In this document: one piece after another, positions 48,652 through 53,547 of the stretch | How positions within the stretch are numbered: position 1 is the first letter of the stretch | Layout of the letters: each line of letters begins with the position of its first letter | Assembly (NCBI GenBank): GCA_000004695.1 | Contig: CM000151.3 | Span: 4,320,001-4,384,000 of the forward strand | Direction of reading: 5' to 3' | DNA length: 64,000 bases | Source: Dictyostelium discoideum | Taxonomy: Eukaryota | The notes under the pieces: model-generated | What the model was told of the DNA's origin: nothing | Database searches by the model: none | What the model saw: the letters and a program-made list of their open reading frames with translations, nothing else | Made by a program: the position numbers and the translations under genes

Positions 48652-51600
48652 TTAGAGGTTGAATACTTTAGTTTTATCCAAAGAAGATAAGAAATGGACT
48701 GGTAAAATGGTTTCTTTAACTTCAACCATTATCAATGAAACATTTCTTTGTGTTGAGAGTAAAGTATCATAAACTGCTTTTTCTCCCAAGATTGTTGGAT
48801 TAATAATTTTAAAAGCACCTGAAGTATCACTGTTTTGAGAAAATTTTTGAAGAAAAAAAAAAAAGTTAATATATAATTTTTTAAAAATTTTAAATATATT
48901 TTAAAAACTTACCCATTTGGTAATGAATATAAATTAATATTTTGAGGGAAAGTTTGAATGATTTCAGAGATTCTTTTAATGATTTCTTTATATTTCATAC
49001 CCTTTAAAACTTCCATTTTAAAGCTAAGATCAGTTTGAGAGTTTGTATTCTTGTAATTCATAATTTGGAAAGCAATGACTACTTTGTGGAAAGTGAAATT
49101 ATAGTAATCTGAGAGATATGGGAATTGTACATTCTCACGTAAAGACAATGAACGTTGACAAATGATCATTGAACCATTGGCAATCTCATAGGACTTTAAA
49201 GTTTTATGAGGATCTAAAGCACTGACACCATTTGAATCTTCACCAAACAATAACAATGGTGAATTTGGATCATCGGATTTATGGCATAATTTTTGATTTA
49301 AAAATGGTATTAAGCAACTGATTGGCGAATTTGATTGACAAACTTTGGTACTAATGAATTCGAGTTGCTTTTTGTATGGATCATAATATTTGAAAAATAT
49401 CAATATCAAATCATTATTAATTGGATCAAAGAATAAATTCTTTTCGTTTGGATTTGGTAAATTTGATACTTCCAAATGGAATCTCATTTCGGTTGCTTGA
49501 CCATGCATATTTAAATATTGTGAAACTTTTTGAAAAAATAAAAAAAAAAAAAAAAACAAAATAGAAAATTAGTATTAATTAATAAATAAATAAATTAATT
49601 AATAAATAAATAATAAATAATAAAATAAAAAAAAATTACTTACAAATATCTTCATCATCTAATAATAAAGGACATCTTGTAACTCTACTTGCTTTTGTTG
49701 GAGTTGGATCCCAAAACCAAATTCTTTGTCTTTCAAATGATACTCCATATATCATTTGAATTTGGAGTTTCAATTCCAACAATGTTGAAAGTTTTCTAAT
49801 CTTTATTGGATTGTGTTTAACAAAATCTACTAATTCAAAGCTTTGACTCTTTTCAAAATCATAATCCAAAGTTAACTTGATCGTATGATAATAAAAGTTT
49901 TCTTCATCCGATTTTTGTTTTTTTAATTTTTCATTATTTACATCATTATTACTATTTGTATTATTGATAATATCACTATTGGCTCCATCCAATATGCTAT
50001 TGTTATTATTACTGGTGGCGGTACTATTTACATCACTAATTTGTTGTTGTTGTTGTTGTTGTTGTTGTAGTTGTTGTTTTTGTTGTTGCTGTTGTTTACT
50101 ATATAATTGAATATGTTTTGATGTTTCATTTGAATAAGATAATAAATGATTTGTATCTAAAATATTTTGTGATAAAAAGTAAATTGTAACTTTTACTGTT
50201 AATGTATCATTATCTAAAAATCCATAATCATCTTTTTTAATTGTATCTAATGGTAAAAACTTTTTAAATCCCCAATTAACACTACTATAACAGAAAGTGT
50301 GGAACGAATCTAGAAATAAAAATAAAAAATATATTAATATTATTATTTTTTTTTTTTTTTAAAAAAAAAAAAAAAAAAAAACAACTTACATTTCTTTTCA
50401 GATTTTTTACTATCTTTATTAACAACTTCTAAAATGAAACAAATGTATTGTCTTATCTTTGGTTTAGTTTTTGGATCAACATAATCTAAATATAAAGAAA
50501 AGAAACCAGATGCACTATTACCACGTGGGAAAATATAAAATCTCCAATCTGTATTGTATAATTTAAAAACAGGTGAATAGAAATTTTTATCCAATGTTGA
50601 AAATCTTTCAATATTATAACTAAATGAACCAGTAACTTCCTCTAATTGATTTGATGCAATTGGTTCTTTTGTATCAATATCCATTGAATCTTGTGATTGT
50701 CCCAATGCCAATTGTTGTTGTTGTTGTTCAATCATTCCATCTTTTGATACTGACAACATTGTACATTCATCTGGATTATTATTGTTATTATTATTATTGT
50801 TATTATTATTATTATTATTATCAATAGGACCAGATGAAGATAGTGGATCTTGTTTTTGTTTCTTTTCACCACCACCAGATTTAATAAATTCACTATCAAT
50901 ATCACCATTAATTGCAGTGATCGTATTCTTTAAAAATCTTTTTGTTGGAGGGTTTTGAATTGCACTTGATGATGTGCTTCCAATATGACTATTATCCTTA
51001 CTAGTATTACTAGAACTACTATTATTATTTGATGTTAATGCTGGGAATAAATTTTTATTGAATGGAATTGGTCTTAAGAAATCTGATGCAATCACAATTA
51101 ATTCTACATTGATAATGATTGTGCCATCTTTAAAGAATCCATTCTCTGGTTTGAATAATGTTGAAATTTTCATAAATTTTTGAAATAACCAACTAAATGA
51201 ATTATATGAATAAATATTACTAATATCTAAAATAAATAAAAAATAAATAAAAAAAAAAAAAAAAAAAAAAAAGATAGTTAATAACTATACCGACTACAAA
51301 GATAATAATTTAATTTTGTAAAAAATAAAAAAAAGTTTGTTACATTTTTTAAAATTTTTTGAAGGATTATCTTGATTAACGATTTCAATTGCAAATGATA
51401 TATGCTTTCTAAGTAGTGGTTTGGTTTTAATATCAACCAAATCTAAATAAATTGAAAAATAATCTGTTAAATTCTCTAGAGGATAACTAACCAATTGCCA
51501 TAAGCATCCTGCTATTTCAAAAGTTGGTGAAAATATTAAATCTATATTTGGTTGTTTCTTTGCATAAAATGTAAATTTACCACAGTCTGGTTGTCCCAAA

Positions 51601-53547
51601 TTTGATGAAATTTCAAAACTTATTAAGAAAAAAAAAAAAAAAAAAAAAAATTAATAAAACATTATTATTATTATTATTATTATTATTATTATTATTATTA
51701 TTATTATTATTATTAATAATTAATAATTACTTGGGAGAAGGTTCAATAAAATTTGAAGACATAACAGTAAATTCAATGTTGATTATGATTGTATCATCAA
51801 CAATGAAACCTGAATCTGGGTTTAATAATGTATTTAATAAAACGAATTTTGGGAAACCAAAATTCATATTCTTATCATCATAAACATGATCGACCCATTT
51901 CTTTAAGTTCTTTTCTGGATTCTTTAAATTTATAATTTCGATTGCAAAAAATAAATGTTTGATCATTAATGGTTTAAATTTAACATCCAACAAATCCAAA
52001 TAAACTGAAAAATAATTTGGTGATGAATATCCATTTGGGAAAATATATATTCTCCTTTATTATTTTAAAAATATTTTAATTATTAGTAATTATTATTATT
52101 AATATTATTATTATTTTATTTTATTTTTATTTTAAATATATATATGTCAAACTTACCAATTCGAACCACAAACATAATAGGTTGGTGAATAAAAATTTTC
52201 AAAGTGATGAGAGAAATTTGTCAAATGATAAGAGAATTTGCCGTATGGTTTAATATCGTTTGGGTCTGATAAATCAACAGTTTTTGGCGATTGAATTTCA
52301 ACTTTTATCTTTAATTTATCGGATACTAAGTAACCATTATTTGGATTCAATAAAATTTGTAAATTTAAAAATGAAATGAATCCCCAATTTACTCCTTTAA
52401 ATGAAAATACATGATTTGATGCTATAAAATTTTAAAATAATTAATATTAGTTTAATATAAAAAATTAAGAATTAAATAATTTTTAGGAAAAAAAAAAAAA
52501 AAAAAAAAAAAAAAAAAAAAAAAAAAAAAAAAAAAAAAAAAAAAAAAAAAAAGGTGGGGGTTGTGTGTGAGTGTGTTATCAAAATTAAAAAAATTAAAAT
52601 TAAAAAAAAAAAAACAGTTATGTGACTGTGTGTATTATGAGAGAACTATCATTATTTAATAACTTACTTTTCTTTACATTCTTTGACTCATCAAATTGAT
52701 TTATTAAAGTTAATGTGAGAGTGGCCTCTTTTTGAAACATTGGATTTGTTCCGATATCATAATAATCCAAAAATATTGATATATTACCAGGACTATTATT
52801 TCCCTCTGGGAATATTAATAATCTCCTATAATTTAGAAGAAAAAAAAAAAATAAAAAAATTAAAAAAAAAAAAAAAAAAAAAGTGTGTTAATAAAATACA
52901 AATAATTTATAAAAATAATAATTTTTAAAAACTTACCAATTTGATTCACATAAATTAAATATTGGAGTATAGAAACTTTCTTTATAAGCTGAAAATGTAG
53001 GTATTTCAACTATCCAAACACCTTTGGTGGGGGTATTTTCAATAAGAGGTTTATAATTACTATTGCTACTGCTACTATTTACACTGTTGCCATTTGACAT
53101 TTTTACTACGCTATTTACACTACTACTACTGCCGCTACTGCCACTGCTGCCATTACTATTACTACTACTACTTGTATGTGCATTATTGCTACTACCACTT
53201 GGTGTACCAACTGCACTATTATCATTGTTGATGTTATTATTATTATTATTATTATTATTATTATTATTATTATTATTATTATTATTATTATTATTATTAT
53301 TATTATTATTATTGTTGTTGTTGTTGTTGTTGTTGTTGTTGTTGTTGTTGTTGCTATTTACAGAATTATTTACATTATTAATTTCATTTACTACTAGTTG
53401 ATGATTTTGATGATTTACTAAAATTGGTGTTGTGGGTGGTACCACTATGACTGTACTATTTGTATTTGTTGTTGTGGTAGTTATAGTCCCTCCGCCATTT
53501 ACAACGTCAATCATGTCAGTTATTTCATTTATACCATTGTTATTCAT
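48652..53547 (-). CDS. USP7/HAUSP-like protein without a protease core. About 1350 aa with a poly-N N-terminal region, four tandem MATH (TRAF-like) domains, a Q/N-rich linker and USP7-type C-terminal ubiquitin-like (HUBL) domains. About 9 exons.
   Basis: The track ORFs 52933..53547, 52153..52350, 51727..51999, 51294..51599, 50343..51173, 49636..49992 and 48909..49559 all lie on the minus strand. They join in phase through short introns of about 80-110 bp (donors gtaagt, gtaatt or gtaaca; acceptors tatag, aataag, tttag, tctag, aaaag or aacag). MATH 1 is ...SFYTPIFNLCESNW|RLLIFPEGNNSPGNISIFLDYYD...|...VFSFKGVNWGFISFLNLQILLNPNNGYLVSDKLKIKVEIQ. MATH 2 is FSYHLTNFSHHFENFYSPTYYVCGSNW|RIYIFPNGYSSPNYFSVYLDLLDVKFKPLMIKHLFFAIEIINLKNPEKNLKKWVDHVYDDKNMNFGFPKFVLLNTLLNPDSGFIVDDTIIINIEFTV. 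MATH 3 is GQPDCGKFTFYAKKQPNIDLIFSPTFEIAGCLWQLVSYPLENLTDYFSIYLDLVDIKTKP...DNPSKNFKK|YISNIYSYNSFSWLFQKFMKISTLFKPENGFFKDGTIIINVELIV. MATH 4 is FSYNIERFSTLDKNFYSPVFKLYNTDWRFYIFPRGNSASGFFSLYLDYVDPKTKPKIRQYICFILEVVNKDSKKSEKKC|YSFHTFCYSSVNWGFKKFLPLDTIKKDDYGFLDNDTLTVKVTIYF. The C-terminal exons match human USP7 HUBL segments: [26 protein letters not shown] resembles [67 protein letters not shown]...ANGSMIICQR resembles [42 protein letters not shown]...MDGDIIVFQK. No exon encodes a USP Cys-box or His-box, and the introns are too short to hide one. Confidence 0.65.

Follow-up and report, generated by a model that had tools for sequence, protein, structure and literature searches.

The window analyzed here is a 64,000-nucleotide (nt) stretch of Dictyostelium discoideum DNA (contig CM000151.3, positions 4,320,001 to 4,384,000), in which a minus-strand gene encodes four MATH domains followed by a ubiquitin-like (UBL) tail of the kind found in the deubiquitinase USP7, with no deubiquitinase catalytic domain between them. 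The region is ~22% GC, with short introns, homopolymer tracts, and poly-N/Q repeats in its coding sequence, the usual look of a Dictyostelium-type genome. We built the gene model by pairing each donor of the GTAAGT type with the first AG acceptor in frame, which yielded one unambiguous solution of nine exons (Table 1). A first-pass annotation of this DNA had proposed that minus-strand exons at this locus assemble in phase into a USP7-like protein; the nine exons, all joined at GT..AG introns, do form an open reading frame (ORF) of 1308 amino acids (aa) whose start and stop lie exactly where that annotation had placed them. From 5′ to 3′ in the transcript, the introns measure 111, 246, 102, 112, 117, 80, 118, and 83 nt, so that the 80 to 110 bp given earlier is approximately right for seven of them (80 to 118 bp) and wrong for the one of 246 bp. 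A look-up of the exact 1308-aa model in a collection of 15 billion proteins returned no match.

A Pfam scan matched four separate segments of the model to MATH_2 (PF22486; E = 1.7e-71). It also placed USP7_ICP0_bdg (PF12436) at aa 1017 to 1251 (E = 3.4e-31), and beyond these two no Pfam family was significant. Pairwise identity among the four MATH domains is 26 to 41%. MATH1, MATH3, and MATH4 each have a phase-1 intron following "KK", a recurrence that fits an internal tandem duplication. The array had previously been described as four consecutive MATH domains; four are indeed present, but MATH4 is set apart from MATH1 to MATH3 by a low-complexity linker of ~150 aa.

The C-terminal part of the protein consists of a connector helix and three UBL domains, UBL1 to UBL3. 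A phmmer search against PDB sequences aligned it to human USP7 residues 553 to 840 (E = 1.5e-9), an alignment within which all three tail pairings with human USP7 quoted in the first-pass annotation fall. Against the canonical USP7 of Polysphondylium violaceum (KAF2072827.1), it is 33% identical over 304 aa (E = 3e-40). Structure prediction gave a similar picture. An AlphaFold (AF2) model of the exon 8 peptide, with a predicted local distance difference test (pLDDT) score of 85.9, retrieved USP7 UBL structures as all of its top 21 Foldseek PDB matches, with E values down to 4e-11. The whole tail of the Acytostelium ortholog, when modeled in the same way (pLDDT of 81.8), contains three beta-grasp domains followed by a low-confidence, disordered end, and it matched crystal structures of USP7 UBL1-2-3 at E = 1.5e-25 with template modeling (TM) scores of up to 0.79.

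In USP7, the protease sits exactly between MATH and UBL1. No Pfam match to UCH (PF00443) was found in the 1308-aa model, and regular-expression patterns for the Cys box and the His box found neither in any frame of the 64-kb window. When the P. violaceum USP7 was searched against the window with tblastn (E ≤ 10), only its MATH domain (residues 97 to 224) and UBL1 to UBL3 (residues 574 to 861) matched, all within this gene, while the protease (residues 241 to 545) and UBL4-5 (residues 895 to 1137) went unmatched. We also constructed two profile hidden Markov models (HMMs), one of the USP7 catalytic domain (from 28 domains) and one of USP7_C2 (from 26), and used them unfiltered (--max) to search the gene model and all stop-to-stop translations of the window. 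The catalytic-domain profile found nothing in the model, and its best hit (E = 0.64) lay elsewhere in the window on the strand opposite to the gene and represents noise. Furthermore, a single open exon (50309 to 49644) runs from the C-terminal portion of MATH4 through the linker and UBL1, so no protease exon can hide between MATH4 and UBL1. The earlier claims that the locus has no catalytic core and only a Q/N-rich linker between the MATH array and the tail are therefore borne out by Pfam, pattern searches, tblastn, profile HMMs, and the exon itself. As predicted from its sequence, the protein would have no deubiquitinase activity and cannot remove ubiquitin.

The same searches delimited the tail. 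Of the two USP7 C-terminal families to which the first-pass annotation had pointed, USP7_ICP0_bdg matched as given above, whereas USP7_C2 (PF14533), which covers UBL4-5, had no Pfam match in the model. The USP7_C2 profile left the model unmatched as well, its best hit among the six-frame pieces of the window (E = 2) being noise on the opposite strand. The protein ends ~15 aa past the last strand of UBL3 and has no C-terminal activating peptide. The tail is UBL1 to UBL3 and nothing more; UBL4-5 and the C-terminal activating peptide are absent. An initial description of ~400 aa of USP7-like UBL domains thus stands for UBL1 to UBL3, but not for UBL4-5 or for the length, which is ~350 aa.

We used the exon 8 peptide as the query of a full-library phmmer search, which returned 67 matches. 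The best of these, at 50% identity, was a protein of Acytostelium subglobosum annotated as a hypothetical protein (XP_012750980.1/GAM25937.1), which has four MATH domains and USP7_ICP0_bdg, no UCH, and no C2, an architecture identical to that of the window gene. Five of the eight introns of the window gene (five of the seven in the Acytostelium gene) occupy identical positions in identical phase, and two upstream neighbors, a WD40 gene and a small gene on the other strand, are also present at the Acytostelium locus. Domain order, synteny, and introns thus place this gene and XP_012750980.1 in one dictyostelid MATHx4-UBL1-3 ortholog group. The two differ in that the Acytostelium protein has Q-rich rather than N-rich low-complexity sequence, shorter linkers, and two extra introns. 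In a global alignment, UBL1 to UBL3 are 49% identical between the species, while the linkers and N terminus are 12 to 21% identical and variable in length. With the folded domains at 49 to 84% identity against 12 to 21% for the linkers, the domains appear to be under purifying selection, with disordered linkers between them, a pattern of selection on domains and not of decay, a pseudogene, or an assembly artifact. A general homolog search with the tail and with MATH1 to MATH3 returned nothing or only plant MATH proteins; it missed the Acytostelium ortholog, even though that protein has long exact words in common with the queries, and was thus uninformative for this lineage.

The low-complexity segments differ in composition between the two species. 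In exon 1 (53240 to 53370, minus strand; aa ~64 to 105), there is a run of ~40 Asn codons (AAC/AAT repeats), and the Acytostelium ortholog has a poly-Q/P tract at the equivalent N terminus; the type of low-complexity sequence varies by lineage while the domains are conserved. One segment of the Q/N-rich linker, LDTNHLLSYSNETSKHIQLY, is conserved, its counterpart in Acytostelium being LDNRYLQSYSHMRSSHIQLY. At this position in USP7 lies the lead-in to the Cys box ("DSKK..G.VGL.NQGATCY"). We considered LDTNHLLSYSNETSKHIQLY as a possible scar of the Cys box and rejected it, since a MAFFT alignment to "DSKK.TG.VGL.NQGATCY" gave 3 of 19 identities, which is not significant.

We asked where the two ends of the protein come from. 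Behind the Acytostelium ortholog, the phmmer matches to exon 8 were led by canonical USP7s of Synstelium, P. violaceum, and Heterostelium (36 to 37% identity), with USP7s of other eukaryotes ranking next (21 to 35%). In a neighbor-joining (NJ) tree of UBL1 to UBL3, the window and Acytostelium sequences pair at 100% bootstrap, and the pair joins the dictyostelid USP7s at 100% in a clade that excludes other amoebozoan, opisthokont, heterolobosean, and plant USP7s. This phylogeny of the UBL region, which had been suggested as a check on the origin of the gene, thus nests it with dictyostelid USP7s. In an NJ tree of MATH domains, each of MATH1 to MATH4 pairs with its Acytostelium counterpart (100% each), and this one-to-one pairing indicates that the quadruplication predates the split of Dictyostelium and Acytostelium. 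The array as a whole groups with the MATH domains of dictyostelid USP7s at 96% bootstrap, while monophyly of the eight array domains receives 35.5%, leaving the internal order of the array unsettled. Among PDB sequences, the best matches of MATH2 and MATH4 were to the MATH domain of human USP7 (E of ~6e-10), compared with 4e-5 to 3e-4 for SPOP; TRAF5 was matched by MATH2 only (E = 0.24) and not by MATH4.

Intron positions are consistent with the trees. The phase-2 intron within the Trp codon of "NW/R" (the slash marks the intron) in MATH1 and MATH2 is shared with the P. violaceum USP7 gene, which has an intron at the same position and in the same phase as the one that follows exon 1. Likewise, the phase-0 intron "N/EKN" in UBL2 is common to the Acytostelium gene and to the USP7 gene of Heterostelium album. 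With the array and the tail alike assigned to dictyostelid USP7 by the NJ trees and by shared introns, it is well supported that both ends descend from USP7, which would make the gene a USP7 paralog and not a fusion with a foreign MATH array. The original proposal of a protease-less protein with USP7 sequence at both ends therefore holds, and the loss is both real and old, given a syntenic Acytostelium ortholog with the same architecture and five shared introns.

Altogether, we consider it likely that the gene is a conserved, noncatalytic USP7 paralog that acts, most probably, as a multivalent adaptor or scaffold. In the history that we envisage, the dictyostelid USP7 gene would have been duplicated before Dictyostelium and Acytostelium diverged, and the duplicate would then have lost the USP protease core together with the tail parts that activate it, UBL4-5 and the C-terminal peptide. 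Its MATH domain may have been amplified to four copies by internal duplication while UBL1 to UBL3 were retained. According to the titles of PDB entries 2ylm and 5j7t, UBL4-5 and the C-terminal peptide serve to activate the catalytic domain, and the loss of the protease together with both elements fits this role. In the present-day protein, four MATH domains on flexible low-complexity linkers could bind short linear motifs of client proteins with avidity, and the UBL1-3 module could dock a partner, so that the whole would function as a multivalent adaptor or scaffold. Partner binding by MATH and UBL domains, whether bridging or sequestering, is plausible for such a protein. The scaffold role suggested earlier is likewise plausible, the binding modules having been both kept and multiplied, and it should be read as a deduction from domain content.

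An alternative is that the protein is a USP7 decoy, which would compete with the enzyme by binding its P/A/ExxS and KxxxK motifs, either shielding clients from deubiquitination or titrating USP7 partners. Both binding modules do descend from USP7, and residues of each pocket survive. In human USP7, D164 and W165 are reported to be essential for P/A/ExxS binding (PMC6203733). The Trp equivalent to W165 is kept in three of the four MATH domains, but the D164 position is occupied by N, N, S, and N in MATH1 to MATH4 of both species, while D is present there in 12 of 12 canonical USP7s aligned, dictyostelid ones included. The four pocket motifs as a whole (NWGF, NFGF, SWLF, and NWGF in MATH1 to MATH4) are identical in the Acytostelium ortholog. 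The pocket of USP7 Ubl2, 758-DELMDGD-764, requires each of E759, D762, and D764 for KxxxK binding (PMC4457826). Here the corresponding segment is YEIANGS, in which E759 is kept but D762 is replaced by N and D764 by S. D762 is also not conserved in dictyostelid USP7s, and the Acytostelium ortholog, unlike the window protein, keeps the D764 equivalent. Given this divergence of both pockets from those of the parent enzyme, we regard a decoy as unlikely, and the substrate-trapping role put forward in the first-pass annotation is weakened by the same replacements. Binding specificity has probably shifted relative to that of USP7.

The other alternative raised in that annotation is an independent fusion, in which a copied USP7 tail would have been joined to MATH domains taken from a MATH-only or TRAF-like family unrelated to USP7. 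Other lineages, plants among them, do have proteins with several MATH domains in tandem, some with four (PMC3664471), and monophyly of the eight array domains has low bootstrap. However, the MATH domains fall with those of dictyostelid USP7s at high bootstrap, they share the Trp-codon intron with a USP7 gene, and their PDB matches favor USP7 MATH over SPOP and TRAF by ~4 to 6 orders of magnitude or more, all of which leave a fusion improbable. That the gene is an artifact or is dying, through mis-assembly, mis-splicing, or decay of a USP7 pseudogene, is hardly credible: the gene model rests on genomic sequence, and its exact form is absent from the protein collection, but the 3.9-kb ORF is intact, the protease gap falls within a single open exon, and the independently assembled Acytostelium genome shows the same architecture, synteny, and introns, with MATH domains that are 66 to 84% identical.

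Several points weigh against reading the gene as a noncatalytic USP7 paralog with an adaptor function. The splice junctions rest on GT-AG sites, an open frame, and collinearity with the ortholog, not on RNA. Both trees are NJ only, and the MATH tree draws its dictyostelid comparison from USP7 and not from other dictyostelid MATH families. The canonical dictyostelid USP7s compared all come from other species (P. violaceum, H. album, and Synstelium polycarpum) and not from the genome to which the window belongs. Finally, with both human pockets diverged, the partner specificity of USP7 cannot be transferred to the predicted protein.

Several other genes were noted in the window. Directly downstream of the MATHx4-UBL gene and on the same strand, a 605-aa ORF (44366 to 46183, minus strand) carries a C-terminal UQ_con domain (E = 7e-25). 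We considered this ubiquitin-conjugating (E2) gene as a functional partner and set the idea aside, as the adjacency is not preserved in Acytostelium, where the downstream neighbor is a Ras/Roc gene. At 12352 to 20830 (minus strand), four single-ORF genes of 498, 522, 511, and 512 aa stand in tandem; the two that were scanned contain Lipase_3 (class 3 lipase; E = 2.6e-16 and 1.2e-20), and the array looks like a tandem duplication of lipases. A series of ORFs at 59150 to 62891 (minus strand) resembles exons of a polo-like kinase, with a kinase motif at ~61688 to 61897, Q/N-rich spacers, and a polo-box-like C-terminal region. On the plus strand, 29753 to 32710 encodes a 985-aa RhoGEF-PH-FYVE protein, and 6108 to 10064 encodes one of 1318 aa that has a GNAT acetyltransferase domain. 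Among the relatives compared, H. album (GL291006.1, locus L003) has a 238-aa MATH-only gene (4062 to 4934) directly upstream of an 834-aa UCH-UBL gene (5001 to 8019), the latter named "meprin and TRAF domain-containing protein" in public annotation. The split of this canonical USP7 into two genes is probably an annotation error.

Table 1. Positions of the MATHx4-UBL1-3 gene, its exons and domains, and the neighbors that are syntenic in Acytostelium (a slash within a motif marks an intron)
Feature	Position in window	Strand	Residues	Remarks
Whole coding region, MATHx4-UBL1-3 gene	48652..53547	-	1308 aa	9 exons, stop codon included; spliced ORF; ortholog alignment collinear across every junction
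Exon 1	52937..53547	-		N/S/T-rich low-complexity N terminus (aa 1-172) and first third of MATH1; ends in phase 2 in Trp codon NW/R
Exon 2	52668..52825	-		Middle of MATH1; next intron 246 nt, phase 1 after NVKK, common to Acytostelium
Exon 3	52157..52421	-		End of MATH1 and start of MATH2; ends in phase 2 in Trp codon NW/R
Exon 4	51731..52054	-		Remainder of MATH2; next intron SP/NFEI, phase 2, common to Acytostelium
Exon 5	51344..51618	-		First two thirds of MATH3; next intron NFKK/Y, phase 1, common to Acytostelium
Exon 6	50390..51226	-		End of MATH3, low-complexity linker (aa 594-742), first two thirds of MATH4; next intron SEKK/Y, phase 1, common to Acytostelium
Exon 7	49644..50309	-		End of MATH4, Q/N linker, connector helix, and UBL1, all one open exon; next intron DEDI/F, phase 1, common to Acytostelium
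Exon 8	48913..49525	-		UBL2 and most of UBL3
Exon 9	48652..48829	-		End of UBL3, short tail, stop codon
Low-complexity N terminus			1-172	Precedes MATH1
MATH1	52285..53028	-	174-302	Two introns inside; pocket motif NWGF; 72% identical to Acytostelium MATH1
MATH2	51757..52245	-	316-444	One intron inside; pocket motif NFGF; 84% identical to Acytostelium MATH2
MATH3	51081..51584	-	465-593	One intron inside; most divergent unit; pocket motif SWLF; 69% identical to Acytostelium MATH3
Low-complexity linker			594-742	~150 aa separating MATH4 from MATH1-3
MATH4	50170..50633	-	743-870	One intron inside; pocket motif NWGF; 66% identical to Acytostelium MATH4
Q/N-rich linker			~871-952	Between MATH4 and connector helix
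Conserved 20-aa stretch LDTNHLLSYSNETSKHIQLY	50101..50160	-	874-893	Just after MATH4, within otherwise unconserved linker
Connector helix, UBL1, UBL2, and UBL3	48655..49923	-	953-1308	Two introns inside; ~350 aa
Small opposite-strand ORF	55410-55730	+		Upstream; syntenic with Acytostelium locus L001, 8425-8783
WD40-repeat gene, acidic tail	56727-58417	-		Upstream; syntenic with Acytostelium locus L001, 6685-8355

Proteins with MATH domains have been classified into USP7, MATH-only (tandem and four-MATH proteins included), MATH-BTB, MATH-filament, TRAF, TRIM37, and meprin families (PMC3664471), and no family of that classification combines a MATH array with USP7 UBL1-3. The nearest arrays in it are the plant MATH-only and multi-MATH proteins (Class I, the four-MATH Class III, and relatives of AT2G25320), which carry tandem arrays of two to four MATH domains and are thought to be adaptors without enzymatic domains. 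Unlike the USP7-derived array described here, however, these are not of the USP7 type in that classification and have no USP7 UBL module. In the literature searched, we found no description of a protease-less USP7 paralog or of this gene. The architecture is a variant that stands in databases as an unnamed hypothetical protein; as such it is undescribed, and no new mechanism is established by it.

USP7 tails without UCH occur in a few others of the 67 phmmer matches. These are proteins of Gigaspora margarita (CAG8748179.1, MATH+UBL; KAF0553700.1, TPR+UBL) and Pigoraptor (P0059/P0068, MATH+UBL) and one zf-LSD1+UBL protein (P0040). At the MATH+UBL locus of G. margarita (CAJVQB010011502.1, 2219 to 3956), ~220 nt lie between the MATH- and UBL-coding parts, with no UCH signal. 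In contrast to the dictyostelid gene, these proteins have a single MATH domain or other N-terminal domains, and their models are partial, transcriptome derived, or unverified. These cases may represent parallel losses of the protease in unrelated lineages and not orthologs. A broader proposal would be that coreless USP7 paralogs constitute a recurrent, functional, and undescribed class of adaptors derived from deubiquitinases, with the dictyostelid MATHx4-UBL1-3 protein as its oldest and best-conserved member and parallels in Glomeromycota and Pigoraptor. We advance this only tentatively and think it rather doubtful, but if it were true, such adaptors would regulate ubiquitin signaling, antagonizing or redirecting USP7 through multivalent capture of its clients or partners, and the dictyostelid gene would amount to a natural separation-of-function allele of USP7.

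Pseudodeubiquitinases in the usual sense keep an inactive protease fold. The predicted protein resembles them as a member of a deubiquitinase family that is unable to cleave ubiquitin and presumably works through binding. It differs in that the catalytic fold has been deleted rather than inactivated: there is no sequence-profile trace of a UCH fold, and the interdomain regions are N/Q/S-rich and unconserved in the ortholog. Thus, the label of pseudodeubiquitinase that was first attached to the gene captures a nonenzymatic derivative of USP7 but is loose, as no inactive catalytic fold remains, and the gene is better described as a domain-loss paralog than as a pseudoenzyme.

The closest comparison is with canonical USP7/HAUSP itself (peptidase family C19, MATH-USP-UBL1-5), with which the protein shares MATH domains of the USP7 type, the connector helix and UBL1-3, and introns. 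It differs from canonical USP7 in having no catalytic domain, UBL4-5, or C-terminal activating peptide, in having four MATH domains instead of one, and in the replacement of D164 in all MATH copies and of D762/D764 in UBL2. USP7 is among the most studied deubiquitinases, and the contributions of binding or scaffolding versus catalysis are usually probed in it with engineered mutants. Here, evolution has made and kept a coreless construct across social amoebae, one in which MATH is multiplied fourfold, UBL1-3 are retained, and the protease and its activating elements are removed together, and Dictyostelium is genetically tractable. The joint loss of the protease, UBL4-5, and the C-terminal peptide supports a modular view of USP7 with independent evidence from comparison.

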